From contig CAYGJY010000001.1 of NCBI GenBank assembly GCA_964350645.1, forward strand, positions 326,648 through 390,647: a stretch of 64,000 nt of DNA, in the 5' to 3' direction. Origin of the DNA: an uncultured Candidatus Saccharibacteria bacterium. Its GTDB lineage: Bacteria; Patescibacteriota; Minisyncoccia; Phycocordibacterales; UBA918. Shown here piece after piece: positions 3,937 to 54,222 of this stretch. Each line of letters starts with the position of its first letter. Position 1 is the first letter of the stretch. Both the position numbers and the translations under genes were made by a program. The notes under the pieces were generated by a model. The model had not been told where the DNA came from. It searched no databases and was given only the letters and a program-made list of their open reading frames with translations.

Positions 3937-3988
3937 CACAGTTAAAATGTTAGACCAACAATGGCTTAAAATATAGCATAGATGCAAT

Positions 3989-4264: not shown

Positions 4265-4282
4265 ATTATGTCAATATTATAG

Positions 4283-6683: not shown

Positions 6684-6684
6684 C

Positions 6685-7062: not shown

Positions 7063-7064
7063 AT

Positions 7065-7325: not shown

Positions 7326-7328
7326 ATA

Positions 7329-8111: not shown

Positions 8112-8130
8112 TGACTTAGTATACCAGACA

Positions 8131-8160
8131 CAAAAAAAGCCGGTTGTGCCGGCTTTTTTT
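8131..8160. terminator. Rho-independent terminator (bidirectional-looking)
   Basis: aaaaaaAGCCGGttgtgCCGGCTttttttt is a GC stem flanked by an A-run and a T-run. It lies just downstream of the stop of the 8176..8718 minus gene. Confidence 0.6.
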
Positions 8161-8175
8161 GTGTCTGTGTAAAGA

Positions 8176-8718: not shown

Positions 8719-8774
8719 ATTGAAATCTGAATATTATTCGCTAAATTGCTTTTATAGCGCGATTATAGCAGGTT

Positions 8775-10669: not shown

Positions 10670-10691
10670 GATGTCGCTAGGCTAGCACAGC

Positions 10692-11690
10692 CTAGCGGAG
10701 ATAGCGAGCGATATTTGCCGTGTGTTCGGTGTAGGTTTCTGCGAAGTGAAAAACTCCATCCGGATCTGTAATGTAGTAGAAATATTCAGATGGTGTTGGC
10801 TCCAAGACAGCCTTAATAGCATCAAGTCCAGGGTTACCAATTGGCGTTGGCGTTAGTCCACGATAGAGGTACGTATTATAAAGAGAATCAATCTTGAGGT
10901 CTTCAGGAGTTAATTTAGACAAAGGTTTGTCGAGTATATATTCAATAGAAGCATCAGCTTGGAGTGGCATATCGATCGCTAAACGGTTTTGTAGGACACT
11001 GGAGACAAGTTTCATTGAATCAGCCGAGTTCGCTTCTCGTTCGAGAAGAGAAGCTAAAACAATAATTTCATATTCATTCAATGGATGAAATTCAATTTGA
11101 GAGCGCAGTGGTGAAATTTGTTCTTCGTAGGTGGATCGGAGTAAGTCATAAAACTCAGCATCAGTAAATTCTTCTGGCAAGAAATAGGTCTCAGGGAATA
11201 AAAAACCTTCGTCAGTTTCTGCATAAGAGATAAAGGATGTGGGTTTAAAATTATCGAGTTTTTCAGCGGCAATAGCAGCAATTTGCTTGACGGTACTGCC
11301 TTCTGGAATAGTGACCCGCACGAGCTCATCTTTCGGGCCAATTTTTGTAATTACTGAAGCAACTTCGGTAACTGGGACTGGATTGGCAAAAGAATATGTC
11401 CCTGCCCGAATGTCTGTGGCGTCATGGAGAAAAACTAAAGTTAGGTAAAGTAAATTACTAGAAGCGACATAATCATTTGCTTCAAATTGTTCAACTATAT
11501 CGCGCACTGTGCTGCCAGGTTCAATAGTAATTTGTGAATTAGCTGGGAAGTTAGTTGGAGCAGCATAATTGCGTGCGAGATACAGACCACCCACAATGCT
11601 GATAACCAAGGATATTAAAGCGCAGGTGATAACTATCAACTTAAGTGTTTTTATCAGAGAATGTGATTCTGGTTGGTCTTGGGGAATCAT
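10692..11690 (-). CDS. mltG: Endolytic murein transglycosylase MltG (YceG-like)
   Basis: An N-terminal transmembrane helix plus the YceG signatures LQADASIEYIL and YNTYLYRGLTPTPIGNPG. Confidence 0.8.
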   Translation of the reverse strand: MIPQDQPESHSLIKTLKLIVITCALISLVISIVGGLYLARNYAAPTNFPANSQITIEPGSTVRDIVEQFEANDYVASSNLLYLTLVFLHDATDIRAGTYSFANPVPVTEVASVITKIGPKDELVRVTIPEGSTVKQIAAIAAEKLDNFKPTSFISYAETDEGFLFPETYFLPEEFTDAEFYDLLRSTYEEQISPLRSQIEFHPLNEYEIIVLASLLEREANSADSMKLVSSVLQNRLAIDMPLQADASIEYILDKPLSKLTPEDLKIDSLYNTYLYRGLTPTPIGNPGLDAIKAVLEPTPSEYFYYITDPDGVFHFAETYTEHTANIARYLR

Positions 11691-41214: not shown

Positions 41215-42450
41215 CTACCTAAGTTTCGCTTTTCTACTTTTTTCACGATGATAGGTGATAGCAAACCGGTGTGACTCAGCGTTAGCTAGCAGAATCTCTT
41301 GTTCGTGCTCTGCTTTCATCTTAGCAGTTGCCAGAAGGCGAACTGGCCGGTGGCGGTCGTCTTTGACGACCGCCACCACTGGAATCACCAATCCCACCTT
41401 TTTGAGCACCCACTGAGCTGCATTCTTTTGTGCTGTGGAACCATCTACCACAAGAATCTGTGGAAACGGCCACTCTGGGTGCCGGAAGCGCCTTTCTAAA
41501 ACTTCTTTTAGTGCCCCCGGGTCATTACTTCCATGTACAGACTGGATTTTGAACTTCCTATACTCACTTTTTCTCGCTTCACCACCTTCAACAACCGTCA
41601 TCACACCAACCATGTCTTCTCCCTGAAGGTGGGCAATGTCATAAGCCTCAATCCGTAGCCGCCTGTCATCACGATAATGTTTCTTATCATCCTGAATCAA
41701 GGCGATATCTTGAATGTGCTGCAAAGCAAAAATTTTCTTTTTTATGATATGAGCAATTTCAAATTCTTCTATCTTAGCTAATCGCATCATATCTTTCTCA
41801 AGTTCTTTCAATAAGATATGTTTCTTACCCTCGAAAAACAACTTAATATGACGAATGGTTTTTAGGTATTCTTCTTTGCTCTGTTTTTCTGGGTAGAGAC
41901 CAATCTGGCGATTGAAGTCGATCTTGCCGCGGGCCATTTTAGTCTTCTCTGCTCCGACCGGAATACTCGTGTCATAGTATTTAAATAGTTTGCGAACAAT
42001 TTTTAACGCTTCGCGAAAAAGTTGTCCACTCGGAAATGGTCCAAAGTGATACTTTATTTCATGCTCAGTATACTGCTCAGTTAGATCCTTACCACGTACA
42101 ACCAATACCCGTGGGTACTCTTCGTTGGTAATAATAAGATGATTGAAACTTTTATCATCTTTTGAAAGAGTATTATATCTGGGCTTATGCGAACGAATCA
42201 GGTTAGTCTCAAGAATCAGCGCCTCAAGTGTACTGTCAGTTTCTGTCCACTCAACTGTTTTTGCTTTTCCCACCATTTGCCCAATCAATTCAGAACGCTT
42301 TTCTCCTACATCAGCTGAAAAATAGCTTCGCACGCGATTGCGTAGCGAAGTTGCCTTACCGATGTATAAAATCTCCTTCTTACCCCCAAGAAAAAAGTAG
42401 ACTCCCGGAACATCGGGCAGTTTCTTCTTTGCTAAATCAGTTTTGTTCAT
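41215..42450 (-). CDS. uvrC: Excinuclease ABC subunit C-like (GIY-YIG + RNase H-like domain, no HhH tail)
   Basis: The GIY-YIG block GVYFFLGGKKEILYIGKATSLRNRVRSYF...ETNLIRSHKPRYN, and a C-terminal UvrC-type block DGSTAQKNAAQWVL...ESHRFAITYHR (compare DGGKGQ...DEAHRFAI). At about 410 aa it lacks the (HhH)2 domain. The start is taken at MNKTDL. Confidence 0.7.
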   Translation of the reverse strand: MNKTDLAKKKLPDVPGVYFFLGGKKEILYIGKATSLRNRVRSYFSADVGEKRSELIGQMVGKAKTVEWTETDSTLEALILETNLIRSHKPRYNTLSKDDKSFNHLIITNEEYPRVLVVRGKDLTEQYTEHEIKYHFGPFPSGQLFREALKIVRKLFKYYDTSIPVGAEKTKMARGKIDFNRQIGLYPEKQSKEEYLKTIRHIKLFFEGKKHILLKELEKDMMRLAKIEEFEIAHIIKKKIFALQHIQDIALIQDDKKHYRDDRRLRIEAYDIAHLQGEDMVGVMTVVEGGEARKSEYRKFKIQSVHGSNDPGALKEVLERRFRHPEWPFPQILVVDGSTAQKNAAQWVLKKVGLVIPVVAVVKDDRHRPVRLLATAKMKAEHEQEILLANAESHRFAITYHREKSRKAKLR

Positions 42451-43060
42451 GACTTTTAATCGCTGTGCGGTATGGCAGTAGCGCCACCAACACAAGCAAC
42501 AGCTTCACAGCAAAGTCAGCAATCGCTAAACTGACCCACAGTGGTGCAAGGACACCGACACCCAAGATCGGCACCAACTCATTTGCCCAAGCGACATCAA
42601 CTCCGGGTGCAACAAAAACAAATGCGGCCGAGAAGGCAATTGTGAAAAACACGATGGTATCAATCAACGATCCAACTACCGATGAGAGCAACGGTGCTTT
42701 GTACCAAGGAGATTTTTGTACTGAGTTAAACACGACAATATCAGTCAGTTGCGCCATCAAAAAAGCCAGTCCAGAACCAAGCGCTATTCTTATAGTGGTA
42801 AGTGGAAAACCATCTGCAGTAGTGAACTCACTTGCAATTAACGAGCACAGAACACCGGTTACAAAGCCATACAAAACCACTTTCCGAGCCATCTTTGTAC
42901 CAAGTAGACGATTGGTAATGTCAGTAATCAAGAATGCCACTGGATACGTAAACGCCGCCCAGGTGAGCCAATCACCAAGTAAAAACTGAACTAAAATATT
43001 TGAGACAACCACCGTCAGTGCCATCGCGCACACTAAAGAATAAAATACTTTGTTGTCCAT
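42437..43060 (-). CDS. Queuosine precursor transporter (YhhQ/VUT family, DUF165)
   Basis: A polytopic 207-aa membrane protein with TYPVAFLITDITNRLLG, close to the YhhQ signature TYPxxFLxTDxINExxG. Confidence 0.65.
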   Translation of the reverse strand: MDNKVFYSLVCAMALTVVVSNILVQFLLGDWLTWAAFTYPVAFLITDITNRLLGTKMARKVVLYGFVTGVLCSLIASEFTTADGFPLTTIRIALGSGLAFLMAQLTDIVVFNSVQKSPWYKAPLLSSVVGSLIDTIVFFTIAFSAAFVFVAPGVDVAWANELVPILGVGVLAPLWVSLAIADFAVKLLLVLVALLPYRTAIKSHEQN

Positions 43061-43064
43061 ATTA

Positions 43065-45686
43065 TTAGAGATGTTTCTTGAGGTATTTGCCAGTATGAGA
43101 TTTTTGATTTTCAGCCACTTCTTCGGGAGTACCCTTAGCTACCAATTGCCCGCCGCCAGCCCCACCTTCGGGTCCAACATCGAGAATGTAATCAGAACAT
43201 TTGATCAAATCTAGGTTGTGTTCGATGACCATCACGGTATTACCACGATTGACTAACTCTTGAAGAATCTCAATCAGCTTTCTGACGTCTTCGTAGTGCA
43301 ACCCAATAGTTGGCTCATCAAGAAGATAGATGGTTTTTTGCGTGTGTGGTCGATAGAGTTCTGAAGCAATTTTAACGCGTTGCGCCTCTCCACCAGATAA
43401 CGTAGTAGCACTTTGCCCCAGCTCTAAATATCCTAGTCCAACATTTTGTAAACTGTAAAGACGTTCATAAATCGCCGGTACATCTTTGAAAAATTCTACG
43501 GACTCTTCAATATTCATATGAAGGACATCATAAATATTCTTCCCTTTGTAGTAGATCTCGAGTGTTTCTTTAGTAAAGCGTTTACCGTCACACACGTCAC
43601 AGGTTACAAATACTGTCGGTAAAAAGTGCATCTCGACTGCAATCACCCCATTACCCTGACACGCTTCACAGCGACCACCTTTGACGTTGAATGAGAAACG
43701 GCCTGGTTTCCAGCCACGCGCTCGAGCTTCACTGGTTGCGGCAAACATATCACGAATATGGGTAAAAGCACCGGTGTATGTAGCAGGATTCGAGCGTGGT
43801 GTACGTCCAATCGGCGACTGATCAATCAGCACAGAACGGCCCAGATACTCAGTACCAGTGATAGATGACACATTATAGGTTTTGGCTGTTCGGTATTTTT
43901 TTTCCAGTCTTGCTTGGAGATTTTTATGCAGAATCTCGTACATGAACGTAGACTTACCTGAACCTGATACACCAGTCACTGTAATCAAACGACCAAGCGG
44001 AATATCCACATTCAGATTCTTAATGTTGAAAGCCTTGCCACCTTTGATTTTGATTGCTCCTTTTTCACCAGTGCGTCGTTCTGGAATCGGAATAGTTTTG
44101 TCTCCCCGCAAGTAATCAAGTGTAATAGATTTTGAAGGGTTTGTTTTTGCCTCTAGGAGCTTCGGGAGATAGTCTGCTACGACTACTTCCCCACCATGAA
44201 CACCAGCACCAGGACCAATATCAATAATATAATCAGCGGCATAAATAGTATCTTCGTCGTGCTCAACCACAATAATTGTATTCCCCAGATCGCGTAGTTC
44301 AGTAAGTGTCTGAATCAGTTTGTCGTTGTCTCGTTGGTGGAGCCCGATAGTGGGTTCGTCAAGTACGTAGAGCGCGCCAACCAAACCAGAACCCAGCTGT
44401 GAGGCGAGTCGAATCCGCTGCGCTTCCCCACCCGAAAGTGTATTAGCTCTACGGTCGAGGGTTAAATATTCAATCCCAACATTATTCATAAATTGAAGAC
44501 GTTCGATAATTTCACGAAGGGCTGGCCAAGCAATATCTTGCTGCTTTTTAGTCAGTTTCAGACTATCAATAAAATCACTGGCCTCTCGGACGGTCATACT
44601 GGTGAAATCAACTATATTTTTACCAAGATCTTTACTGGTGCCTCCCAAGTACACTCGCAGCGCTTCTGGGCGCAACCTAGCTCCTTTACATGATGGACAT
44701 TCATCGGAATTAAAAATTCCTACGACCCCAAGACCGTTACATTCAGGACACGCACCATATGGTGAGTTAAATGAAAAAAGACGCGGTTCTACTTCTGGGA
44801 AAGATGACCCATCGACTGGACAGATAAACTTTGCTGAAAGGGTGCGTTCTGTGCCGTCAGGTGATTCTACCTTTACAAGGCCATTTGATTGTTGCAGTGC
44901 CAATTCTACTGCCTCAGAGAGTCGTTCCCTGGATCCTTTTGGATCGTCGGTGAATTCACTTACATAGATCGCATCAACTAAGACATCAATATCGTGTCGC
45001 TTTGTTTTGGTGAGTTCTATTTTGTCACGTAATTGGTGAATTTTGCCGTCAATCTTAACAGTCTCATACCCTTTACCAAGTAAATCATATAACAATTGAT
45101 AGTACTCCCCTTTACGTCCCACAATGACTGGCGAAAAAATTCCAACCCGTCCTTTATTCAACTGAATTCCCATCACTTTTTCCGCATCTTTTTTTGCAGT
45201 TTTTACTTCTTTGTCTTCAATTGATTTCAGAACAATACCTAGAATTTCGTCTTGAGAAAGTTTTTCAATCGGCACATCAGTATCAAGACAATAGGGCTGA
45301 CCTACCCGCGCATACAAAATACGGAGGTAGTCATAAATTTCTGTAATAGTTGCCACGGTTGAACGCGGGTTCCGACTGGCAGACTTTTGGTCAATCGAAA
45401 TAGCTGGTGAGAGCCCTGAGATCTCATCAACATCAGGCTTCTGCATTTTATTTAAAAACTGACGCGCGTATGGAGACAATGACTCAACATACCGACGTTG
45501 ACCTTCGGCGAAGATCGTATCAAAAGCTAGTGATGACTTACCTGAACCAGATGGCCCTGTAATAGCAATCATCTTACCGCGCGGCATTTCAACATCAATA
45601 TTTTTAAGATTGTGCGTACGGGCACCACGAACCACGATCTTGGCATCATGTTCATTCCATTCTGTTTTTGTTTTTTTCTGTGCCAT
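43065..45686 (-). CDS. uvrA: Excinuclease ABC subunit A
   Basis: Two ABC ATPase modules (GPSGSGKSSLAFDTI and GVSGSGKSTFMYEIL), zinc-finger Cys clusters (CPVDGSSF...CPECNGLG, CEACQGNG...CDVCDGKR) and two LSGGEAQR signature motifs. 873 aa. Confidence 0.95.
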   Translation of the reverse strand: MAQKKTKTEWNEHDAKIVVRGARTHNLKNIDVEMPRGKMIAITGPSGSGKSSLAFDTIFAEGQRRYVESLSPYARQFLNKMQKPDVDEISGLSPAISIDQKSASRNPRSTVATITEIYDYLRILYARVGQPYCLDTDVPIEKLSQDEILGIVLKSIEDKEVKTAKKDAEKVMGIQLNKGRVGIFSPVIVGRKGEYYQLLYDLLGKGYETVKIDGKIHQLRDKIELTKTKRHDIDVLVDAIYVSEFTDDPKGSRERLSEAVELALQQSNGLVKVESPDGTERTLSAKFICPVDGSSFPEVEPRLFSFNSPYGACPECNGLGVVGIFNSDECPSCKGARLRPEALRVYLGGTSKDLGKNIVDFTSMTVREASDFIDSLKLTKKQQDIAWPALREIIERLQFMNNVGIEYLTLDRRANTLSGGEAQRIRLASQLGSGLVGALYVLDEPTIGLHQRDNDKLIQTLTELRDLGNTIIVVEHDEDTIYAADYIIDIGPGAGVHGGEVVVADYLPKLLEAKTNPSKSITLDYLRGDKTIPIPERRTGEKGAIKIKGGKAFNIKNLNVDIPLGRLITVTGVSGSGKSTFMYEILHKNLQARLEKKYRTAKTYNVSSITGTEYLGRSVLIDQSPIGRTPRSNPATYTGAFTHIRDMFAATSEARARGWKPGRFSFNVKGGRCEACQGNGVIAVEMHFLPTVFVTCDVCDGKRFTKETLEIYYKGKNIYDVLHMNIEESVEFFKDVPAIYERLYSLQNVGLGYLELGQSATTLSGGEAQRVKIASELYRPHTQKTIYLLDEPTIGLHYEDVRKLIEILQELVNRGNTVMVIEHNLDLIKCSDYILDVGPEGGAGGGQLVAKGTPEEVAENQKSHTGKYLKKHL

Positions 45687-45744
45687 AGCAAGCCGTCTTC
45701 GGGTGGAGCCGAAGACATGAAACGTTAGTATAACAAATACTCAC

Positions 45745-47088
45745 CTACTTAGAAACGGTTGGCAAGGGCAAGGTAATAACTACATGCGTACCAACATTTT
45801 TAATAGATTCAATGGCAATAGTTCCCCCCATCAACTCAAGAAATTGACGAGTAATCCACATACCTAGTCCAGTGCCGGTAATAGCCGAAACATCAGTTGA
45901 ATCTACTCTAAAAAATGGTGCAAATAATTTTTCTCGATCAGCAGCCCCAATCCCCATACCAGTATCCTTGATCCGTATTTCAATGCTTCGAATTTTAGTC
46001 TCTGCTACGATAGTGATTGAGCCAGTCTTTGTGTATTTGATTGCATTACTAATAATATTGATAAGTACTTGATGTAAACGTTTAGGATCAGCCGCCACCA
46101 TCAAACCTGATGGCACTTCTGATATAAGTTCAAGATCTTTCGCTTTCGCCGAACTTTGCAACTCCTCTAATACAGCCAGTGAAACACCTTCCAGATTAGT
46201 TTCTTCAATATCAACCTTGAGTTTCCCAGACTGGATGCGTGCAACGTCGAGTAAATCGTTGACGATAGTGAGAAGACGATTGCCGGCTTCTTCTATCCGT
46301 TTGGCGTACGTCCTATTAGTTTCTGACAAGTCACTCTCTTGGAGCATGCTGGCATATCCCTTCATGGCGGTTAATGGCGCTCGCAACTCGTGTGCGATTA
46401 AATTAGTGAACAAATCTTTGGTTGCAATAGCTTGCTGTGCTTCTTGATAGAGCTGTCGATAGTTAACACTAGAAATATGCCAATAAGCAATTACCAATAC
46501 AAGTGCATACACCAAACCCAATGTGACATAGGCAGTTCGCTCTTGCTCTGCGAAATACTGATCAATCTGGGAAAAGTTATTTTCGGTCAAAATAAAATAC
46601 GTACCACCCTCTGTACTAATTGCTCTCACTGACTGCCAGACCCTAACACCATCTTCCATAAAAGGAAAAATTAGTGACTCATCAAAGCGAACGGCTGCTG
46701 TTTGATACAAGGCTTTATTTGCCTCTTCCTCACCCACTAAAGTAGTATCGAGACCAGCTCGCACTAAAAATGTATTCTGTTGCTGCTCAACAATTCTAAA
46801 CTTAGTGATGTCTGGGTTTAAATCAGCTATCTTTTCTAACTGTGTCTGGGCTATTGCTGTATCAAAATTTGTCGCTTCCAGCAGCACCACGAATGAGTCA
46901 TGCAGTAGACCAATGCGATCCCGTTGTAACTTATCCTGATTGGAGCGCCCTGCTTCCAAAAAAGCATTACTTGTATACAAAAACGCCAGCGGAAGAACGA
47001 TAATCAAAAGCAGCGCAAACTGAATTTGCGGATGCGCTTTAATAAAAGTGAACGAGCGTTGGACAGAAAAAAGTAGACCAGAAATCAT
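45745..47088 (-). CDS. Sensor histidine kinase
   Basis: An N-terminal transmembrane and sensor region, the H-box HELRAPLTAMKGY, and HATPase_c N/G boxes (INIISNAIKYT, DTGMGIG, GTGLGM). Its start overlaps the stop of the upstream 972-aa gene in an ATGA arrangement. Confidence 0.85.
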   Translation of the reverse strand: MISGLLFSVQRSFTFIKAHPQIQFALLLIIVLPLAFLYTSNAFLEAGRSNQDKLQRDRIGLLHDSFVVLLEATNFDTAIAQTQLEKIADLNPDITKFRIVEQQQNTFLVRAGLDTTLVGEEEANKALYQTAAVRFDESLIFPFMEDGVRVWQSVRAISTEGGTYFILTENNFSQIDQYFAEQERTAYVTLGLVYALVLVIAYWHISSVNYRQLYQEAQQAIATKDLFTNLIAHELRAPLTAMKGYASMLQESDLSETNRTYAKRIEEAGNRLLTIVNDLLDVARIQSGKLKVDIEETNLEGVSLAVLEELQSSAKAKDLELISEVPSGLMVAADPKRLHQVLINIISNAIKYTKTGSITIVAETKIRSIEIRIKDTGMGIGAADREKLFAPFFRVDSTDVSAITGTGLGMWITRQFLELMGGTIAIESIKNVGTHVVITLPLPTVSK

Positions 47089-50003
47089 ACTACCTGAGTC
47101 AACTCAGCAACTCTTGTGACAGCAAATTTTTTCTCACGTGTACGTAAGTGTAAGCCGAGTAAAATGAGAATCACCCCGATAGACACTATTGAAAGTGACC
47201 CAACTAGTAACAGAATATTTGGCGATACTAGACTTTGTCGTTCTGTTTGTCCAACAACAGCAAGCTCTGTATCAGCATCGACTGGAGTAAAGGCTTCGGC
47301 AGTCTTAATGAAGCGGGTTGGCTCACTTTTTGCGACTACTCGTCCTGCGTTATCTGTCACACCAACATACACTTCATGCTCCCCATCTTCAATTTCTTTA
47401 TCGAAAGTATATGACCAATTGCCATCTTTGTCTGTTTTTATTGTAACGACAACAGGATTGGAATACACAAATAAGGTTACAAAACTATTTGGCAAACCAC
47501 GTCCAGAAATGACAGCGGTTGGTAGCGGCTTTGTATCGGGTGCATTGTCTCCTTTTTCTGACTTAACAGAAGTGATGGCAGTAATCTCAAATACATCAGG
47601 CCTAAGGGCACCGGTTGTCTTCGGTGATTCGTAAGCGACTACCACTTCTGACTCAGCACTCGTTGGATCGTAGCCGTTTAAAATTTCAATACCATCAATG
47701 AAACCGTCATTGTCTGAGTCAGCCATGAGTGGGTCAGTTTGATAAATATTTCTTTCGTCATAATCAGTTACTCCATCATTGTCAGTATCAACAAGAGCCT
47801 CATCACCAACTCGTTCTCTCACGATTCGCTCAGTTTGCTCGGTACGTAGTGTCATTTCTGCTAATTGTCGGCGGAGACGGTTTTCAATTAAAGAAACTAG
47901 TTGATCGGTATCAGCTTCAGAAAGAGCTGACCTGACGATATCTGTCTCCAAGAGATTAAGCTGCTCCTGAATTTCTCCAATAGCGGTACTATCTTTACCC
48001 CGAATAGCAATCGCTAAACGCTTGAAGCTTTCATCGAGTCTTGCTTGGTAGCGAGCTAACAGAGCTGTCAATTGCTGATCCGCTTTCTCTGAGTCTGTTT
48101 CTGAAGCTTCAATAGCTTCTGGAACATCAGCTCTTGTGATTATTTCAGATTTCGTAATCGCTTCATCAACAAAACGCTGTCTTGATGCTGGAGCAGTCAG
48201 TATCTGAGGACGTGATTCAATTTCACCGGATGTGGTACTGGCATTCTTTAGGCGATTCAACTCAGCTGAAATTTGATTGTCACTCTCAAATGTTTTAGTT
48301 GATGCTTCTGTCACTGGTGATACCGCTTCTTTTTTTGTCTCAGTGGAAACAAGAGGCTTTTCTACTTCAGGATTAGCAATTCTAACCAATGCATCTTGAC
48401 CAAAATATGAGACATTTTCAAGCCACGTGCGTGTAAAGATTGTGTAGTTTCCATTCGGTAAATTATTTGTATCAACAGCAATCCGCCATGTCTGCCCTTC
48501 AGCTCGATTTGCAACTCCAACGTATGAAGCGGATAAGGTATTTTCCCGTCGCATATACACTTCGATTTTTTGTAATTCTCGGTTTGTCTGAATCACAAAT
48601 GGAGCTATCCCAGAGAGACGCTCTCCGTTAACTGGTTTGATACTAACCGACAGGGGCAGTTTAATTTGAGTATTTTCAGCAGTAGCAGTCTCTGCATTCA
48701 CTGATATTGGTTGCTCGTTAAATTCTTCAACTTTTGTAGCACCTACATCCTGCTGTGACTCATTAATCAAAAATGAACGCTTTTTAGTTTGATAAGAAAC
48801 ATCATTAACCACTGTATCTGCAAACAGATAATACTGTCCAGGAGCTAGATCAGTCGTCTTGTATGTAAGTGAAAAGTTTGTCGGCGAAATTTTTTCGCCG
48901 GCTCCAAGGCTCGTGATATCGCCACGATCATTTGCAATACTAAAGGTAACTCGGCTAGTTGCGGAGGATGATTTGGCTCGTAGTTGCACTGAATTTTCTT
49001 GTCGCTCAAAATCAAGTGTTAAATTGAACTCTTCAGTCTGATCCGTTACTGCTGTAGCATCCGTTTCTGAAGCTTCAGACTCAGTAGCCTCAGATTCGTT
49101 CTCTGTCTCGGTAACAGTGGTCGCATCAATCAGACTTGTGTTTGTAGTTGTATCTGGCTGTTCAACTGGTTCCTCATTTTTTATAAGGTTATCTGTTACG
49201 GGTACTGCAACCTGGTTCTTTATTTCATACTTGTCAGATGTTTTGGCAAATGAAGTCTCCTCTGTAATTACAATTGCCTCAACCTTATAAAAACCATTCT
49301 CGTATTTAGCTGTATCCCAAACAAATTCCCAAACTCCATCAGATACCCGCTTTGCTGTTCCTAAAGTGAAACGTTGAGAAGCATCAATTCGGTGGGCTAC
49401 TACATCAACTCGTTTTGCAGTCGCTACCTTAATATGGACTTTCACAGACTTTTTAAAGTAACCAGCTTGGTCAAAATCAAAACTAACTTCAGGTTTTGGT
49501 ATCACCCCAGTATTAGCCTGCTCACCTTCTAGCAGCTGCTGCTCTGTATTACTAGTTAGAGACAAAGCCGCTGCATACTGCTTTCCAGGCACCAAATCGA
49601 GTGCCGAAGCATGAAAATAAGTTAGGAGAGCACCTAATATAACCACCCCTATACCACCATAACGTGCCAAACCAATAGCCAAGGTATCAATATCAACTGG
49701 CATTTTTGGTAGTACAAACAACGACAAAGCAACCGTGCGCGGCAAAGCATAGCTGTCTTTTTTTTCTTTTGGTGAGTTGAAAAGCGTTTCTTTTTTCTTT
49801 GGCTTGAGTAACTTAGACTGCGGTACTGATTTTGTAGCTTTGGTGCTAGTTTTTTTTGGAGTAGTTTTTTTGACAGTGGCTTTTTTTGTCACTTTCTTAG
49901 GCGTTTTCCTAGTAACCGCTTTCTTAGCGGCAGGTTTTTTTGGAGCAGTTTTTTTCTTACTAGAAATTACCGCTTTTTTGGCGGTTCGCTTTGTTGTACC
50001 CAT
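47085..50003 (-). CDS. Large membrane protein with lysine-rich (histone H1-like) N-terminal tail, extracellular Ig-like/beta-rich region and thrombospondin type-3-like Ca-binding repeats
   Basis: The first 70 aa or so consist of KKxxPKK-type repeats (KKTAPKKPAAKKAVTRKTPKKVTKKATVKKTTPKKTSTK). A transmembrane helix follows at about residues 100-125, then roughly 800 aa rich in T/S/E, including DTDNDGVTDYDE and DSDNDGFIDGIE motifs. A C-terminal transmembrane helix (LLLVGSLSIVSIGVILILLGL) closes the protein. The gene is co-operonic with the response regulator and kinase. Confidence 0.55.
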   Translation of the reverse strand: MGTTKRTAKKAVISSKKKTAPKKPAAKKAVTRKTPKKVTKKATVKKTTPKKTSTKATKSVPQSKLLKPKKKETLFNSPKEKKDSYALPRTVALSLFVLPKMPVDIDTLAIGLARYGGIGVVILGALLTYFHASALDLVPGKQYAAALSLTSNTEQQLLEGEQANTGVIPKPEVSFDFDQAGYFKKSVKVHIKVATAKRVDVVAHRIDASQRFTLGTAKRVSDGVWEFVWDTAKYENGFYKVEAIVITEETSFAKTSDKYEIKNQVAVPVTDNLIKNEEPVEQPDTTTNTSLIDATTVTETENESEATESEASETDATAVTDQTEEFNLTLDFERQENSVQLRAKSSSATSRVTFSIANDRGDITSLGAGEKISPTNFSLTYKTTDLAPGQYYLFADTVVNDVSYQTKKRSFLINESQQDVGATKVEEFNEQPISVNAETATAENTQIKLPLSVSIKPVNGERLSGIAPFVIQTNRELQKIEVYMRRENTLSASYVGVANRAEGQTWRIAVDTNNLPNGNYTIFTRTWLENVSYFGQDALVRIANPEVEKPLVSTETKKEAVSPVTEASTKTFESDNQISAELNRLKNASTTSGEIESRPQILTAPASRQRFVDEAITKSEIITRADVPEAIEASETDSEKADQQLTALLARYQARLDESFKRLAIAIRGKDSTAIGEIQEQLNLLETDIVRSALSEADTDQLVSLIENRLRRQLAEMTLRTEQTERIVRERVGDEALVDTDNDGVTDYDERNIYQTDPLMADSDNDGFIDGIEILNGYDPTSAESEVVVAYESPKTTGALRPDVFEITAITSVKSEKGDNAPDTKPLPTAVISGRGLPNSFVTLFVYSNPVVVTIKTDKDGNWSYTFDKEIEDGEHEVYVGVTDNAGRVVAKSEPTRFIKTAEAFTPVDADTELAVVGQTERQSLVSPNILLLVGSLSIVSIGVILILLGLHLRTREKKFAVTRVAELTQVV

Positions 50004-50062
50004 TTGTCTTTATTATAAAGTAAAAAGCCACTACAAATTAAACACCTGTCGATAACTATTTG

Positions 50063-50425
50063 TTAAAGATGACTACTGACTAATGCGTTCAATTCAGTTG
50101 GATTGGTAGTTGCCTTAAAATAATAGTCAGTTGCACCAGCCGTGATCACAGCAGTTTTTAATTCCGGTGTGTCGTTATTTGAGAAAATAATTATTGGTAC
50201 TGTTTTATACTCTTCGTTAGCACGAACTGCCTTAAGAATTTCAAGTCCTGATGTACCTGGCAAGTCTAGGTCAAGTAAAATCAAATCTGGGACTTCAGTA
50301 AGTATGTGATCATAGGCCAAGTTTCCATCAGCACACACTGTAACTTTGTGGCCGGCATCGCTCAAATGTTTAGATACAAAATCTTGCATGAACTGATCAT
50401 CCTCGATCAATGTAATTGTTTTCAT
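50063..50425 (-). CDS. Single-domain response regulator (CheY-like receiver)
   Basis: A 120-aa protein with acidic-pocket and phospho-acceptor context ...DLILLDLDLPGTSGLEILK and a conserved Lys near the C-terminus. No output domain. Confidence 0.8.
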   Translation of the reverse strand: MKTITLIEDDQFMQDFVSKHLSDAGHKVTVCADGNLAYDHILTEVPDLILLDLDLPGTSGLEILKAVRANEEYKTVPIIIFSNNDTPELKTAVITAGATDYYFKATTNPTELNALVSSHL

Positions 50426-50444: not shown

Positions 50445-52478
50445 CTACTTTTTCTTCTTGGTGAGACTATCCTCAAGCACTTTAATCTCATCACGAATGA
50501 TAGCTGCCGTTTCAAAATCAAGGATTGCCACCGCTTCTTCCATTTGGCGCCGCTTTTCTTTCATGACTTTCTTCGGGTTTTTCTTGAAGAGTTCCATGTC
50601 CACCTTTAGCAAGGTGTCGACTGTTTCATCGTGCACAGTGCGCATTTGATCAGCAATAGATTTAATCTCTTTCTTAATCGACATCGGGGTGATGCCGTGC
50701 TCTTTGTTATAGGCAATTTGTTTATCACGACGTCGCTGTGTCTCACCAACCGCATACTCAAGCGCTGGTGTCATTTCGTCGGCATAGAGTACTACTCGCC
50801 CATTCACGTTTCGAGCCGCTCGACCGATAGTTTGAATGAGGGCTGTTTCGCTGCGCAAAAAGCCAGACTTGTCAGCGTCAAGAATAGCCACCAATTCGAC
50901 TTCGGGTAAGTCGAGACCTTCCCGCAGGAGGTTAACCCCCACCAAACAATCGAACACTCCGCGGCGGAAGTCATTGAGGATTTCGATCCGCTCAATCGTA
51001 TCGACGTCACTGTGGATATACTTGGTCTTCATTCCCTTCTCTTCTAGGAATTCCGCTAAGTCTTCTGCCATACGCTTAGTGAGCGTGGTTGTAAGGACAC
51101 GAGCACCGCCTTTGATAATCTTCTCGGCTTCGGCAATAAAATCTTTGATTTGTCCTGGGTAAGCACCTTTTTCAGTTACTGGGCGCAGATCAATCTCCGG
51201 ATCAACCAAGCCAGTGGGGCGAATGATCTGCTCCACCATCTGACCACCACTTTCTTCGAGCATTGCAAATTCATACTTGCCGGGAGTTGCCGTTGTGTAA
51301 ATTCTTTGACCGAGACGCTCATCTATCTCATCGTATTTGAGTGGGCGGTTGTCAACCGCACTTGGCAGGCGAAAGCCAAACTCCACCAAGTTGTCTTTCC
51401 GAGAACGGTCACCAGCGTACATGCCGTTCATTTGCGGCACCGTGACGTGTGATTCGTCGATAATGGTCAAGAAGTCTGGGGTGCCATCATCTTTGTGTGG
51501 GAAATATGAAAGTAAGGTGTACGGTGCTTCTCCCGGCTTGCGGCGGTCAAAGTGGCGTGAATAGTTCTCAATCCCGTTACAATAACCAACCTCCCGCATC
51601 AATGCGAGGTCATGTTGCGTCCGGCGCTTAATGCGTTCTGCTTCAAGTAACTTCCCTTCTTTTTTAAATTTTACTAATTGCTCTTTGAGTTCAACCTCAA
51701 TATCAGCAATGGCTAACTTTCGCTCCGCTTCTGGCGTCACAAAGTGCTTGGCTGGGAACAAGAAAAATACGTCTGGTTCAGAGATAATCTCGCGCGTCAC
51801 TTCGTCGATTTTTGTAATCCGACTAATCTCATTGCCGGTAAAACTCAGACGATAGATCACTCGTTCGTTGGTCGGCATGAGTTCAATCATATTACCGACG
51901 GCGCGGAAGCTCGCTGGTGTCAGGTCAGCGGTGGTTCGTTCGAATTGCATATCAATCAACGTCCGCAGCATCTCTGTTCGAGTTGACTCATAGCCAATCC
52001 CGATCTTCATCAGCTTAGCTTCATACTGCTCAGGTGAACCAAGACCATAAATGCACGACACCGACGCCACGATGATAACGTCCTCGCGAGTCAGTAGCGC
52101 CTGGGTTGAGGCGTGACGCAGTCGATCAATCTCTTCGTTTATCTGGGCCTCTTTTTCGATGTACGTATCAGACGTCGACATATAGGCCTCTGGCTGGTAG
52201 TAGTCGTAGTAGGAGACGAAGTAATGCACGGCATTGTTCGGGAAAAAGTCCCGGTACTCTTGCGCGAGCTGCGCGGCCAAAGTCTTATTATGAGCAATCA
52301 CCAACGTCGGCTTCTGGATCTGCTGAATCACGTTGGCGGCCGTAAAGGTCTTCCCTGAGCCGGTCACACCCAAAAGCGTCTGGTGTTTTTGACCAGCCTT
52401 AATTCCCTTCACCAACGCCTCAATCGCCTTCGGCTGATCTCCAGCTGGTGTTTTTTCTGTAGATATCTCAAATTTCAT
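50445..52478 (-). CDS. uvrB: Excinuclease ABC subunit B
   Basis: The helicase motif I LLGVTGSGKTFT, a DExH-type motif II (IIDESH), a C-terminal UvrB/UvrC interaction domain (AAIIRDEIKVLE) and the beta-hairpin region. 677 aa. Confidence 0.95.
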   Translation of the reverse strand: MKFEISTEKTPAGDQPKAIEALVKGIKAGQKHQTLLGVTGSGKTFTAANVIQQIQKPTLVIAHNKTLAAQLAQEYRDFFPNNAVHYFVSYYDYYQPEAYMSTSDTYIEKEAQINEEIDRLRHASTQALLTREDVIIVASVSCIYGLGSPEQYEAKLMKIGIGYESTRTEMLRTLIDMQFERTTADLTPASFRAVGNMIELMPTNERVIYRLSFTGNEISRITKIDEVTREIISEPDVFFLFPAKHFVTPEAERKLAIADIEVELKEQLVKFKKEGKLLEAERIKRRTQHDLALMREVGYCNGIENYSRHFDRRKPGEAPYTLLSYFPHKDDGTPDFLTIIDESHVTVPQMNGMYAGDRSRKDNLVEFGFRLPSAVDNRPLKYDEIDERLGQRIYTTATPGKYEFAMLEESGGQMVEQIIRPTGLVDPEIDLRPVTEKGAYPGQIKDFIAEAEKIIKGGARVLTTTLTKRMAEDLAEFLEEKGMKTKYIHSDVDTIERIEILNDFRRGVFDCLVGVNLLREGLDLPEVELVAILDADKSGFLRSETALIQTIGRAARNVNGRVVLYADEMTPALEYAVGETQRRRDKQIAYNKEHGITPMSIKKEIKSIADQMRTVHDETVDTLLKVDMELFKKNPKKVMKEKRRQMEEAVAILDFETAAIIRDEIKVLEDSLTKKKK

Positions 52479-53016
52479 GAATCAAGTCTGATTGTAACAA
52501 ATATTCCCAGTCTTTATCCCAATATCCAGTGGTGTAATTTTTAATGTTAGCCTGAAATTCAAAACTTTTATCTAAAAATTTCCATAATTCATCCTCCACA
52601 AAAGTTGACAACATGTTTACTATTTCATTTACACTTTTATTATCGATGTGAATTTCTGAATTCCTTAGAGTAGTATTATGGATAAAACCTTTGCTTATCA
52701 ACTTATCCAACTCTTTACCAAAATATATTTTTTGAATTGTCTTAAATTGCTCTAATATTTGAACTTTTTGTGTTTTATCAATTTTATTAGCTTCAAATAG
52801 TAGATTAATTGCTTCACTAATACATACATCGTCGTTGTATTTCTTATCTGAGATTACATTCCTTAAAGATACTAAAATAGCAAGATTTAAGTTCTCAACT
52901 AGTAAATGAGCAACTCCTTCAAGTCTCTTATTATCAAAATATGACTTAAATCCAATCATCCGGCATAAGTGCTGAAGCTCGCCAATAGAATTATCTAAAT
53001 ATTTTTCTAATTGCAT
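52468..53016 (-). CDS. Hypothetical protein in AT-rich insert (possible HEPN-like Rx4H motif)
   Basis: A 182-aa ORF whose DNA is conspicuously AT-rich by eye, very roughly 30% GC against roughly 45-50% in the flanks (not computed). It contains TLRNSEIHID, which fits an R-[ND]-x3-H HEPN-type motif. Its stop overlaps the uvrB start by 11 nt. Confidence 0.4.
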   Translation of the reverse strand: MQLEKYLDNSIGELQHLCRMIGFKSYFDNKRLEGVAHLLVENLNLAILVSLRNVISDKKYNDDVCISEAINLLFEANKIDKTQKVQILEQFKTIQKIYFGKELDKLISKGFIHNTTLRNSEIHIDNKSVNEIVNMLSTFVEDELWKFLDKSFEFQANIKNYTTGYWDKDWEYLLQSDLIHEI

Positions 53017-53019
53017 GGA

Positions 53020-54222
53020 TTAACTACTTAGGATTTGTTCTCGTAGTTTCTTCGTGAAATTAACAATGTAGTACAGATTATGAAGACTCGCGAGTTGTGG
53101 GCCGAGCATTTCTTGGGAACGGAATAGGTGCGCTAAATACGCTTTGGTGTAGTTCTGACAAACGTAGCAGTCGCAGGATTCGTCAGGCTTGCTGAAGTCG
53201 CGGATATATTTTTGGTTTAAAAGATTAGTCCGCTGATGTCCGGCGTTAGTTGTCTCATAAATCGTCCCGGTGCGACCAATCCGGGTCGGAGCGACACAGT
53301 CAAAGGTATCGCAACCAAGCGCTACGCCTTCGCGAATATCACCGGGCTCACCGATGCCGAGTAAGTGTCGTGGTTTGTCCTCGGGGAGAATTTCGTTCAC
53401 CACTCGAATCGCTTCACCTAAGTCCTCTTTACTAAAACTCCCCCCAATGCCAAAACCATCAAAGTCCATGTCGGACAACACCCGGGCACTCTCAGCCCGC
53501 AAGTCGAGATGCCGACCCCCTTGCACCACGCCGTATAGCCCCTGCTTCTTGAGAGCGTCGTAGTTGCGCTTATGCGCCAAAATACTGCGCTTCGCCCAGC
53601 GGTGGGTACGATCCATGGCCTCTTTTTGGTATTCATAATCAGCCGTTGGACTGGTGCATTCATCAAAGGCAATGATGATATCAGCACCGATATTGTGCTG
53701 AATATCAATGGAGCGTTCTGCCGTGAAGCGGTGCATTGAGCCATCGAGGTGTGAAGTAAAGGTCACTCCTTCTTCATCAATAATACAGAGTTTTCCGTGT
53801 TCACTGGCGATGTCTTTGTTGTAGACATTGAGACTCGAGCGTTCAGTCGTCTCACTCGCCTCCCCTTTTGCAAACTTACTTACCCCTTTACCAAACGCCG
53901 CCCCCAGACTAAAGACTTGAAAGCCACCACTATCGGTCATGGTTGGCATATTCCAGTTAGCGAATTTATGCAGTCCACCGGCGTCTTTCACGACATCATC
54001 GCCCGGCTGGAGAAAAAGATGGTAGGTATTGGCGAGCGCCACTTGGTTGCCGACATACTGCTTCATGTCTTCGGGTGAGACGCCTTTCACTGTTCCCTTA
54101 GTGCCAACCACAACAAACGCCGGTGTTTCGATATCGCCATGAGGCGTATGAATAACACCAGCCCGGCCGAGAGTGCCGGGCTGCTTTTTAATCACCTCAA
54201 ATGTGACTGGTCGATCTGCCAT
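53020..54222 (-). CDS. tgt: Queuine/preQ1 tRNA-ribosyltransferase
   Basis: The N-terminus FEVIKKQPGTLGRAGVIHTPHGDIETPAFVVVGTKGTVKGV, a catalytic Asp region, and the zinc site CDCYVCQNYTKAYLAHL (CxCxxC...H). 400 aa. Confidence 0.9.
   Translation of the reverse strand: MADRPVTFEVIKKQPGTLGRAGVIHTPHGDIETPAFVVVGTKGTVKGVSPEDMKQYVGNQVALANTYHLFLQPGDDVVKDAGGLHKFANWNMPTMTDSGGFQVFSLGAAFGKGVSKFAKGEASETTERSSLNVYNKDIASEHGKLCIIDEEGVTFTSHLDGSMHRFTAERSIDIQHNIGADIIIAFDECTSPTADYEYQKEAMDRTHRWAKRSILAHKRNYDALKKQGLYGVVQGGRHLDLRAESARVLSDMDFDGFGIGGSFSKEDLGEAIRVVNEILPEDKPRHLLGIGEPGDIREGVALGCDTFDCVAPTRIGRTGTIYETTNAGHQRTNLLNQKYIRDFSKPDESCDCYVCQNYTKAYLAHLFRSQEMLGPQLASLHNLYYIVNFTKKLREQILSS

Follow-up and report, generated by a model that had tools for sequence, protein, structure and literature searches.

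A conserved two-gene cassette of an Ig/TSP3 surface protein and a membrane histidine kinase as a candidate sensory device of Patescibacteria

The 972-aa surface protein encoded between uvrB and uvrA in the window (the whole stretch of 64,000 nucleotides that was analyzed), here termed BIG, belongs to a family whose genes are in most cases directly followed by the gene of a membrane-bound sensor histidine kinase (HK). Comparison across genomes indicates that the conserved unit is this pair, BIG and then the kinase, and neither a set of three genes nor the bracket formed by the uvr genes. The reading favored here, with confidence somewhat better than even, is that BIG serves as an extracytoplasmic accessory protein or co-sensor of the kinase, to which a change in the state of BIG would be relayed. 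Both proteins together would then probably represent a receptor plus its co-receptor. The original prediction had offered the large protein as a possible co-sensor, and as a functional link this idea is supported: in 44 of 51 loci, spread over at least four neighborhoods, the two genes lie side by side, in many cases with translational coupling, and the pair was also recovered when the search started from the kinase.

On the minus strand, the genes of the locus follow the order uvrB, receiver-only response regulator (RR), BIG, HK and uvrA, with all five open reading frames lying where they had originally been placed (Table 1). The intergenic gaps measure 19 nt between uvrB and RR, 59 nt between RR and BIG and 58 nt between HK and uvrA. 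The predicted ATGA overlap between the stop codon of BIG and the start codon of the kinase was found in the sequence, which reads GTA GTA TGA over ATG ATT TCT. The same overlap of 4 nt also occurs in the loci L003, L005 to L008 and others, and it is interpreted as translational coupling of the two genes. Co-transcription of the cassette is suggested by the gene spacing. A scan for promoters and terminators yielded no signal better than that of shuffled sequences; a lone TATAAT is located 8 nt 5′ of the BIG start codon. As 56 of the 62 open reading frames in the window share one strand, the cassette is part of a co-directional housekeeping array. No further HK or REC genes were found within the 64-kb window, and a PADLOC scan of a low-GC open reading frame upstream of uvrB found nothing.

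Table 1. Features of the interval from uvrB to uvrA (positions refer to the window, aa numbers to BIG).
Feature	Position	Strand	Basis
uvrB, upstream flank of the cassette	50445..52478	minus	Pfam UvrB, UvrB_inter, Helicase_C, UVR
Receiver-only response regulator (RR), 120 aa	50063..50425	minus	Pfam Response_reg
BIG, 972 aa, doubly membrane-anchored surface protein	47085..50003	minus	ORF, Pfam, AF2, family searches
Lysine-rich disordered cytoplasmic N-tail, aa 1-88	49740..50003	minus	composition; AF2 pLDDT <45
N-terminal transmembrane helix, aa 105-135, uncleaved anchor	49599..49691	minus	hydropathy peak at residue 108; AF2 helix
Ig-like beta sandwich 1, aa 172-261, Big_7-like	49221..49490	minus	AF2 pLDDT ~90-95; weak Pfam Big_7 184-243
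Ig-like beta sandwich 2, aa 328-413	48765..49022	minus	AF2 pLDDT ~90-95
Ig-like beta sandwich 3, aa 453-542	48378..48647	minus	AF2 pLDDT ~90-94
Helical bundle, aa 605-730, leads into TSP3 loops	47814..48191	minus	AF2
Two bacterial TSP3 loops, aa 739-773, predicted to bind Ca: DTDNDGVTDYDE, DSDNDGFIDGIE	47685..47789	minus	Pfam TSP3_bac E 3.5e-9
Membrane-proximal Big_13 Ig domain, aa 806-907	47283..47588	minus	Pfam E 4e-11; AF2 pLDDT 93-98; conservation profile
C-terminal transmembrane anchor, aa 928-953	47145..47222	minus	hydropathy; AF2 helix 928-971; G950 conservation
ATGA overlap, BIG stop codon / kinase start codon	47085..47088	minus	read from sequence
Sensor histidine kinase (HK), 447 aa	45745..47088	minus	Pfam, TM positions
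uvrA, downstream flank of the cassette	43065..45686	minus	Pfam ABC_tran x4, UvrA_inter

The profile search for TSP3 and Ig-like domains that had been proposed as a check matched both kinds of domain in BIG, with TSP3_bac at residues 739-761, Big_13 at 832-893 and a weak Big_7 hit; together with Big_6 these were the only Pfam families matched. The bacterial TSP3 repeat (PF18884) scored 36.8 bits against a cut-off of 25. Its two DxDxDGxxDxxE loops, at residues 739-750 and 762-773, lie inside the region 47633-47798 where such loops had been expected, and they are predicted calcium-binding sites. Likewise, hydropathy and AF2 both support the anticipated transmembrane (TM) helices at the two ends of the protein, the C-terminus consisting of the TM helix and a short basic tail. 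In the AF2 model of BIG (mean pLDDT 72.6; domains >90), disordered T/S/E linkers lie between three Ig sandwiches, which are followed by a helical bundle and by the TSP3-Ig module. The ectodomain, originally described as T/S/E-rich beta sequence, is therefore not entirely beta; it includes a confidently predicted bundle of ~125 aa, which is built of the helices 605-618, 635-651, 653-668, 672-693 and 700-730 and shows pLDDT values mostly of 89-95 from about residue 610 onward (one block 80; mean of 61 for residues 601-610). A search of PDB sequences with BIG gave no significant match, fold searches returned only generic Ig/FnIII adhesin-extender arrays, and no enzymatic or known ligand-binding domain was found in the protein. 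A match to a well-characterized S-layer or adhesin family, which had been named as an outcome that would speak against the prediction, did not emerge from Pfam, NCBIfam, PDB sequence or fold searches.

The kinase exhibits HisKA (residues 224-288; E 1e-19) and HATPase_c (334-443; E 9e-27) domains and a simple membrane layout, with TM1 at about residues 22-44, an extracytoplasmic loop of ~140 aa (45-186) and TM2 at about 187-207. Hydropathy peaks near residues 22 and 188 occur in the window kinase and in every orthologue. It is therefore assigned by sequence to the class I (HisKA/HATPase_c) sensors with two TM helices around an extracytoplasmic loop. No HAMP or PAS domain was matched by Pfam in the window kinase, and only ~26 residues lie between TM2 and H233 of the H-box. 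The catalytic residues of the kinase are intact, and H233, N344, N348, D375, G377, G379, F389, F392 and G405-G409 do not vary among 38 orthologues. Homology to the kinases paired with BIG elsewhere extends to the sensor half, and these have the same two-TM layout. A sensor profile gave no significant match among PDB sequences. Cache_WalK (PF23846) weakly matched one of 40 sensor domains (E 9e-4), that of the window sequence not being matched, and Pfam detected no PhoQ_Sensor domain in the window kinase or in the 40 orthologous sensor regions.

The BIG family, whose members range from 380 to 1290 aa, was defined by its C-terminal module of two TSP3 loops, a Big_13 Ig domain and a TM anchor, which is present in ~50 species-level genomes of Patescibacteria. 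The proposed BIG-HK cassette consists of this module (TSP3 x2, Big_13, TM helix) followed on the same strand, within ~80 nt, by a two-TM HisKA kinase. The genome scan yielded 51 loci with the BIG family (cluster 0) and 44 with the kinase family (cluster 1); in these 44, which span several candidate phyla, the homologous kinase is the next gene on the same strand at a distance of -80 to +31 nt, many of the junctions overlapping by 4 nt or 1 nt. Ten genome loci share the arrangement uvrB-[RR]-BIG-HK-uvrA. At least 13 others read GAPDH-RpiB-Rpe-transketolase-BIG-HK, and the pair occurs in at least two further contexts, giving at least four unrelated neighborhoods in total. The pair thus moves between neighborhoods as a unit. 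In the reciprocal direction, a metagenome scan seeded with a narrow alignment of the kinase sensor domain found four loci, and BIG was located directly upstream in all three that could be assessed. An exhaustive HMMER search with BIG returned 2583 matches at E<=1e-10, with ~95 of the best 150 being long-form proteins; tandem-array proteins of 1352-7021 aa among the results have only a domain in common with BIG. Word-indexed searches were misleading by comparison, with only three relatives recovered by full-length BIG and one fragment by the kinase sensor profile. No family model in Pfam or NCBIfam describes the BIG-HK pair, and a literature search found no description of it.

These comparisons also revise the original picture of a two-component system wrapped around the large protein. 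The receiver gene is found upstream of BIG in only five of 12 uvr-bracketed loci and in no locus outside that clade, so that the three-gene bracket is not a conserved architecture, and most BIG-kinase loci have no receiver nearby. Of the expected operon conservation, it is the pair that has been kept. The position between uvrA and uvrB is real in the window; it is, however, the address of one clade, other lineages carrying the pair after transketolase genes or elsewhere, and the uvr position and the lysine tail of BIG mark this same clade. Within it, uvrB is 74-86% identical in the ten genome loci that have this bracket and 82% identical in L088, a metagenome locus, and uvrA identity in bracketed loci amounts to 83-91%. 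A scattering of the three genes was never seen in close relatives.

Within BIG, conservation is distributed very unevenly. The N-terminal ectodomain varies in length from ~150 to 1000 aa, the distal part of short-form members comprising only ~150-200 aa, and the juxtamembrane module is constant, with invariant Asp, Gly and His positions. D739, D741, D743, E750 and D770 of the TSP3 loops are invariant in 76 family members; the Big_13 Ig domain, the most conserved part of the family, retains D868, E870, D873 and H876 beside these loops; and G950 in the C-terminal TM helix is invariant in the 76-member alignment and conserved to >=90% in the alignment of 49 loci. This combination of a variable ectodomain and a constant juxtamembrane module would be expected if BIG consisted of a changeable input arm and a fixed coupling module. 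Against the co-sensor reading, the rate of evolution of the kinase ectodomain is about double that of the constant BIG module (Kimura distances of 2.13 and 1.23), and mirror-tree/partial correlation revealed no difference between the two kinase halves in their relation to this module (sensor r 0.49, catalytic r 0.51). As the kinase ectodomain is the faster one and no preferential co-variation exists, the conserved Ig face may bind something other than the kinase loop.

In the proposed mechanism the two genes would form one functional unit of a surface protein and a membrane sensor kinase. BIG is exported and anchored in the membrane through its C-terminal helix; in the long-form clade there is a second anchor, an N-terminal helix preceded by the polycationic tail in the cytoplasm. 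The constant part of BIG near the membrane, made up of a helix, the two Ca-binding TSP3 loops and the Big_13 Ig domain, would be placed beside the extracytoplasmic loop and the TM helices of the kinase, where physical contact is presumed. The variable distal part, here three Ig domains with flexible T/S/E-rich linkers, would project from the cell. The trigger may be a ligand or a partner cell encountered at the distal end, or the filling of the TSP3 loops with Ca2+/Mg2+. The resulting change in BIG would be passed through the juxtamembrane module or the TM helix to the kinase and shift its balance between autophosphorylation and phosphatase activity, the direction of regulation presumably being from BIG to the kinase. 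In this genome, the phosphoryl group would be handed to the adjacent receiver-only regulator as the likely partner of the kinase. This regulator must work through contact with other proteins or serve as a phosphate shuttle or sink, and not by binding DNA.

Such a division of labor has precedents. The lipoprotein LpqB is an accessory activator encoded together with the kinase MtrB. A comparable arrangement is QseG-QseE (PMC12691602), in which the gene of an extracytoplasmic accessory protein accompanies that of the kinase, whose control requires this protein. QseG and LpqB are lipoproteins of unrelated folds, whereas BIG is anchored by a helix, has an Ig/TSP3 architecture and occurs only in Patescibacteria. 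Membrane accessory proteins which control kinases via extracytoplasmic and TM contacts are also known from WalH/WalI-WalK and from MgrB, SafA and UgtL, which act on PhoQ (PMC8534201). The closest resemblance, in our view an analogy and not homology, is to WalK (YycG) and WalH/WalI (YycH/YycI) of Firmicutes, where a monoderm-type two-TM kinase with an extracytoplasmic loop of ~140-150 aa shares one operon with single-pass membrane proteins whose large extracytoplasmic domains modulate it (PMC8534201). The differences are nevertheless considerable. BIG is an Ig/TSP3 protein with a C-terminal anchor and without sequence homology to YycH/YycI, whose fold has an N-terminal anchor; its gene is located upstream of the kinase gene and those of YycH/YycI downstream; WalK contains HAMP and PAS domains, which the partner kinase of BIG lacks; and WalR is an OmpR-type DNA-binding regulator, unlike the receiver-only protein of 120 aa encoded here. 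PhoQ with MgrB, SafA and UgtL resembles the pair in that separate membrane proteins modulate a kinase by periplasmic and TM contacts, as is proposed for BIG, yet these modulators are small (MgrB 47 aa; PMC8534201) compared with the members of the BIG family.

It is also conceivable, if rather unlikely, that BIG is mainly a structural protein such as an adhesin, an S-layer-like stalk or a cell-wall spacer, and that the co-expressed kinase senses something else or monitors the integrity of BIG or the envelope. The T/S/E-rich linkers do resemble glycosylated stalks, and sequence conservation is much stronger in the Ig module than in the kinase ectodomain. Moreover, in four loci (L020, L026, L040, L046) and one paralogue (L036) no kinase is encoded within ~3.4-6 kb downstream, which indicates that BIG can exist without an adjacent kinase. 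However, abundant surface proteins are not normally coupled one-to-one to a low-copy kinase, and gene overlap is widespread here; the pair has been kept through at least four genomic relocations; and the distal ectodomain of the short forms offers little for an S-layer protein or adhesin. Nor were an SLH domain, a sortase signal or an RTX secretion signal found in BIG.

The known structural families were considered one by one. Giant Ca2+-stabilized adhesins such as SiiE, LapA/Lap and MpIBP provide the best structural matches, having Big_13-type Ig domains and acidic Ca-binding loops in common with BIG. They contain 10-50 tandem repeats, leave the cell by type I secretion directed by an RTX signal at the C-terminus and have no kinase as a partner, whereas BIG has a single Big_13, three Big_7-like domains, a C-terminal TM anchor and a kinase neighbor. 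The NCBIfam model Ca_tandemer reached only 24.5 bits on BIG against a cut-off of 50, and neither an RTX-family match nor a type I secretion signal was found with Pfam and NCBIfam; as BIG has no long tandem array and no RTX repeats, assignment to the RTX/Ca_tandemer giant adhesins was rejected. An S-layer protein of the SLH or C-terminally processed type is not supported either, since neither Pfam nor NCBIfam revealed an SLH domain or a sorting-signal family (LPXTG, PGF-CTERM, PEP-CTERM) in BIG. The 20-30 residues before the C-terminal helix are not conserved and contain no LPXTG-like motif, and a sortase- or exosortase-type sorting signal was therefore rejected. Myxococcus CglD and MtsD also carry bacterial TSP3 repeats, in surface proteins of contact-dependent behavior. 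Only the TSP3 loops match, with weak NCBIfam hits to BIG far below the curated cut-offs (E 2.7e-4 and 7.9e-3); there is no common architecture, and CglD and MtsD have no kinase partner.

A decidedly unlikely alternative is that the pair is a sensor of divalent cations (Ca2+/Mg2+), in which metal occupancy of the TSP3 loops would stiffen or release the juxtamembrane module and thereby switch the kinase. Here the co-sensor reading is narrowed to one kind of signal; the function would be like that of PhoQ, except that the metal would bind to a protein other than the kinase. The Asp/Gly ligands of the TSP3 loops are the most invariant positions of the BIG family, and the conserved acidic residues and histidine of the adjacent Ig domain point in the same direction. 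As in PhoQ, an acidic, metal-binding surface near the membrane is predicted. Furthermore, an MgtA-like P-type ATPase adjoins the pair in L022, L032, L048 and L050. ATPases of this kind belong to a gene class under PhoPQ control in enterobacteria, and their presence is a weak hint for divalent cations. Yet this adjacency is limited to four of 51 loci, TSP3 loops in surface proteins are often purely structural Ca sites, and the variable distal ectodomain would be left unexplained. In addition, the metal sites are on the accessory protein here, and neither PhoQ_Sensor nor HAMP was found in the kinase.

The features that are special to the long-form clade are the receiver and the lysine-rich tail. 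The receiver matches Response_reg (E 6e-21) over residues 4-113 and has no output domain; the acidic pocket D9/D10, the phospho-acceptor D52 (LILLDLDLPG), S82 and K104 are kept in the 50%-identical orthologue of L003. The designation CheY-like applies only to its single-domain architecture, and CheY sensu stricto was rejected, as the adjacent kinase is a HisKA class I protein with TM helices and not of the CheA type. The tail proposed from the sequence is indeed strongly basic: residues 1-85 contain 31 K+R and 3 D+E, and TPKK occurs twice. Its composition and a semi-conserved M-A-T-T-K-K-V-A start are common to 72 long-form cluster representatives. Conservation of the tail is compositional, and S/TPKK as a defining DNA-binding motif was rejected, with only 12 of 72 tails containing it. 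As short-form relatives without a lysine tail keep the kinase, the tail is dispensable for the core function; it is specific to the clade.

A speculative extension of the co-sensor reading, to which we attach little confidence, would describe a Parcubacteria/Paceibacteria-type receptor/co-receptor whose fast-evolving Ig arm captures host or partner-cell contact or a surface ligand and gates the kinase via the invariant juxtamembrane module with its bound Ca2+. Its output in the long-form clade would be non-transcriptional, via receiver-only proteins and a membrane-tethered polycationic tail binding nucleoid, ribosomes or anionic lipids. If true, episymbionts with few regulators would gain a direct switch from contact to physiology.

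That the long-form tail is itself the output, a tether of DNA, nucleoid or ribosomes controlled by kinase and receiver, with the uvr position reflecting a link to DNA repair or uptake, is very improbable. A lysine-rich segment of this kind is unique to BIG among the 62 open reading frames of the window and recurs in the cluster representatives; S/TPKK is enriched (14 against 5.8 +/- 2.3 in shuffles); the receivers here and in L010 have no DNA-binding domain; and uvr bracket and tail occur together in every genome locus of the clade. The motif is nevertheless rare and the conservation compositional, tail-less short forms keep the kinase, and seven of 12 tail-bearing loci have no receiver. In other lineages the pair is part of a pentose-phosphate operon, so that the uvr address looks like a case of neutral hitch-hiking within the co-directional housekeeping array. 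Finally, adjacency of BIG and kinase as chance synteny without functional meaning, for which compact CPR genomes with long co-directional arrays of often unrelated abutting genes might speak, is effectively refuted by the comparative data, with order, strand and near-zero spacing kept in 44/51 loci, several candidate phyla and at least four contexts.

Patescibacteria (CPR) represent a large share of bacterial diversity and have tiny genomes with very few signaling proteins, and most of them are thought to live attached to other cells. If BIG were only a co-expressed structural protein, the value of the finding would be modest and mainly annotational. As a co-sensor, it would add a new structural class of kinase accessory proteins, one with Ig/TSP3 architecture, an anchor at the C-terminus and a gene located upstream of the kinase gene. 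With a constant TSP3-Ig-TM module and a two-TM kinase, the pair is a small and clearly delimited system, which makes the question testable. A kinase that is almost always found beside one surface protein across lineages is a good candidate for a core sensory device of Patescibacteria.

The five genes of the original prediction were found where it had placed them, on the minus strand, and each was confirmed by Pfam (see table). The kinase ATG overlaps the TGA stop codon of BIG, the large membrane protein, in an ATGA arrangement, and the remaining intergenic gaps of the cassette are 19, 59 and 58 nt. As the GC content of RR (the receiver), BIG and HK (the kinase; 0.40–0.44) is the same as that of uvrA, with uvrB being somewhat GC-richer, nothing points to the cassette having been inserted recently from a foreign source. 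The 64-kb window contains no further kinase or receiver genes.

Coordinates of the cassette genes, of the parts of BIG and of the enlarged island in locus L010
Feature	Position	Strand	Description
uvrB	50445–52478	minus	UvrB; diagnostic domains (Pfam)
RR	50063–50425	minus	120-aa receiver-only regulator; receiver domain alone (Pfam)
BIG	47085–50003	minus	972-aa membrane protein; TSP3_bac, Big_13, weak Big_7 (Pfam)
HK	45745–47088	minus	447-aa histidine kinase; HisKA + HATPase_c (Pfam)
uvrA	43065–45686	minus	UvrA; diagnostic domains (Pfam)
BIG, disordered tail	aa 1–104		AF2
BIG, N-terminal TM helix	aa 105–135		AF2
BIG, Big_7	aa 184–243		Pfam, weak match
BIG, three Ig-like sandwiches	aa 172–261, 328–413, 453–542		AF2, pLDDT ~90–95
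BIG, helical bundle	aa 605–730		AF2, pLDDT mostly 89–95 from ~residue 610
BIG, TSP3_bac	aa 739–761		Pfam
BIG, two TSP3 loops + Big_13 sandwich	aa 740–907		AF2, pLDDT 93–98
BIG, Big_13	aa 832–893		Pfam
BIG, long C-terminal TM helix	aa 928–971		AF2
L010 island	3974–11444		REC-REC (268 aa), BIG, membrane kinase, FIST, soluble kinase, REC-REC (225 aa)

A genome scan, covering one genome per species (GTDB representatives) and requiring the complete C-terminal module of BIG (two TSP3 loops, Big_13 domain and TM helix), yielded approximately 50 loci, all from Patescibacteria MAGs (Kaiserbacteria, Paceibacterota, Lloydbacteria, Moraniibacteriota, Ryanbacteria, 'Parcubacteria group' and some implausibly labelled TPA bins). 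Comparison of these loci by tblastn, ORF calling and clustering revealed the BIG family in 51 loci and the kinase family in 44, in each of which the kinase is the next gene on the same strand, at a distance of −80 to +31 nt and frequently with an overlap of 4 nt or 1 nt. Exceptions are four loci with BIG but no kinase within the flank and one tandem paralogue. When the search was seeded from the kinase sensor domain, BIG was immediately upstream in all three assessable metagenome loci. All partner kinases have a two-TM layout and homologous sensor halves. The pair occupies at least four genomic contexts, including uvrB...uvrA (10 genome loci), GAPDH-RpiB-Rpe-transketolase...PfkB/aldolase (at least 13 loci) and a membrane transporter with a glycosidase-like gene and a HAD phosphatase (5 loci). 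With the part of the module that follows the TSP3 loops as query, an exhaustive HMMER search produced 2583 matches at E ≤ 1e-10, among them giant multi-Big_13 adhesins sharing only the domain. As about 95 of the best 150 of these matches are 800–1050 aa long and carry a single module at the extreme C-terminus, the long form, the BIG type of the window's clade, is a populous clade.

Five loci of the pentose-phosphate context (L023, L029, L041, L042, L047) contain a type IV pilin-like gene (N-terminus GFTLIELLVV) 2–3 kb 3′ of the pair, for example at 9058–9642 in L023. Parcubacteria-type loci are present on several TPA 'binchicken' MAG contigs whose labels read Saccharibacteria, Bdellovibrionales or Gammaproteobacteria (L005, L006, L009, L010, L015, L021, L035, L051 and others), and the uvr-bracketed ones have a UvrA 84–91% identical to that of genomes labelled Kaiserbacteria. 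The taxonomy given in these records looks unreliable.

The predicted three-gene unit between uvrA and uvrB applies to the clade of the window alone, whereas other lineages have only BIG and HK. A homologue with 43% identity (L003) shows the same uvrB-RR-BIG-HK-uvrA order; L004, which is more distant, has just BIG and then the kinase, 3′ of the transketolase genes. The uvr bracket is restricted to relatives whose UvrA is 83–91% identical to that of the window, and a receiver precedes BIG in only five of the 12 bracketed loci (the window, L003, L005, L009, L010). In five receiver-less genome loci BIG starts 68–106 nt after uvrB, and no receiver match was found between uvrB and BIG in L088. The gap in L010 forms an enlarged signalling island with a FIST protein (FIST_N + FIST_C, 404 aa) and a soluble kinase (HisKA/HATPase_c, 274 aa), none of its receivers having a DNA-binding or output domain. 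Of the 62 non-overlapping ORFs of the window, 56 are encoded on the minus strand and separated by very short spacers, in a long co-directional array, which lessens the weight of mere adjacency as a sign of function in this genome. The cassette also occurs in a pentose-phosphate operon elsewhere, and with both observations the most fitting reading of the uvr address is hitch-hiking in a housekeeping array that is constitutive and co-directional.

A perfect TATAAT hexamer (50012–50017, minus strand) lies 8 nt 5′ of the start codon of BIG, within the AT-rich spacer of 59 nt that separates RR from BIG; neither a −35 element nor a Shine-Dalgarno sequence is convincing there. The hexamer may serve as an internal promoter for a near-leaderless BIG-HK transcript, in which case the receiver would not be coupled to the pair. 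In the gap between the kinase gene and uvrA (~45694–45715, minus strand) a perfect 8-bp hairpin, GTCTTCGG-CTCCAC-CCGAAGAC, is present; no T-run follows and a terminator scan gave no call there. Possible roles are those of an RNA-stability element or an attenuator that parts the cassette from uvrA. A 182-aa ORF between tgt and uvrB (52468–53016, minus strand) has a GC content of 0.28, compared to 0.43–0.50 in its flanks, overlaps the uvrB start by 11 nt at its 3′ end and has no match in Pfam or PADLOC. This slot varies among relatives, L007 and L010 having unrelated ORFs there and L005 and L011 none, and the ORF of the window may be recently acquired. Two queuosine-salvage genes are interleaved with uvrB, uvrA and uvrC, tgt being located 5′ of uvrB and a Vut_1/YhhQ-type transporter gene between uvrA and uvrC; the positions concerned are 41215–42495, 42437–43060 and 53020–54222. 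UvrC itself is short (426 aa as listed, probably ~411 from an internal Met), with GIY-YIG and RNase H-like endonuclease domains and no C-terminal HhH domain detected.

The structure of BIG was modelled with AF2 from a 76-sequence alignment (mean pLDDT 72.6); both termini are predicted to lie inside (N-in, C-in) and the ectodomain outside. The ectodomain, originally described as beta sequence, indeed contains Ig sandwiches, parted by disordered T/S/E-rich linkers, but is not all beta, as it includes a helical bundle. The lysine tail was borne out, with 31 K+R versus 3 D+E in the first 85 residues, unique among the 62 ORFs of the window. In all uvr-bracketed relatives the N-tail is likewise rich in K/R and leads into a TM helix near residue 100–150. 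Other family members (380–1290 aa, typically ~440) start with a signal-peptide-like helix; what lies between it and the constant module is either charged and helical or a single Ig domain. The composition of the tail (K 22.5%, with A, T, S and V) is conserved across 72 long-form representatives. Many of them (handles P0167–P0269; residues 1–12 in the window's BIG) share a semi-conserved start, M-(A/P)-T-T-K-K-V-A, with K at position 5 in 44 of 72, which suggests a specific recognition element and not mere charge. S/TPKK motifs are enriched in the tails (14 versus 5.8 ± 2.3 in shuffles), yet occur in only 12 of the 72 proteins.

The H-box, N, G1, F and G2 residues of the kinase are invariant in 38 orthologues and the receiver retains D9/D10, D52, S82 and K104; with these catalytic residues intact, both should be catalytically competent. 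Approximately 26 residues separate TM2 of the kinase from H233, and no HAMP or PAS domain was found. Its extracytoplasmic loop (~140 aa) gave one weak Cache_WalK match and no other Pfam family among 40 sequences, and a profile search of the PDB was negative.

What can be inferred most strongly is joint action of BIG and the kinase at a roughly fixed stoichiometry, as they are translationally coupled and were kept together through several relocations, which supports the proposed role of BIG as a co-sensor. BIG has no enzymatic domain. Its distal ectodomain is hypervariable and its juxtamembrane Ca-loop/Ig/TM module invariant, as expected of an accessory protein or co-sensor in which the former would serve as variable input arm and the latter as constant coupling device. 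Organisms of this kind are thought to be episymbionts, and contact with the partner cell surface is one candidate signal. Divalent cations are another: the TSP3 ligands are invariant, and in L022, L032 (2077–4482), L048 and L050 the pair adjoins a gene for a type III P-type ATPase. The best NCBIfam match of this ATPase is the magnesium-translocating MgtA family (442 bits, below cut-off), and its presence points weakly to a connection with divalent-cation homeostasis. Two results temper the co-sensor model: the kinase ectodomain evolves at about double the rate of the BIG module, and a mirror-tree test showed no preferential co-variation of BIG with the sensor half. The TM helices, with one conserved Gly (G950), may therefore be the route of coupling, or the conserved face of BIG may bind another envelope component.

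LpqB-MtrB is an accessory protein-kinase pair to which BIG and its kinase can be likened. Functionally, BIG also stands beside WalH/WalI-WalK and MgrB/SafA/UgtL-PhoQ as a kinase accessory protein (PMC8534201) and beside QseG-QseE (PMC12691602). It is not homologous to WalH/WalI, MgrB/SafA/UgtL, QseG or LpqB, and it did not pass the membership tests of these systems. No Pfam or NCBIfam model covers the BIG family, whose members are named 'hypothetical' or 'Ig-like domain-containing protein' in databases, and searches of full-text literature turned up no account of the pair. Kinases that have a membrane accessory protein are well known as a general kind; what is new is the accessory architecture, the C-terminal anchoring, the upstream position and the conservation across many Patescibacteria lineages.
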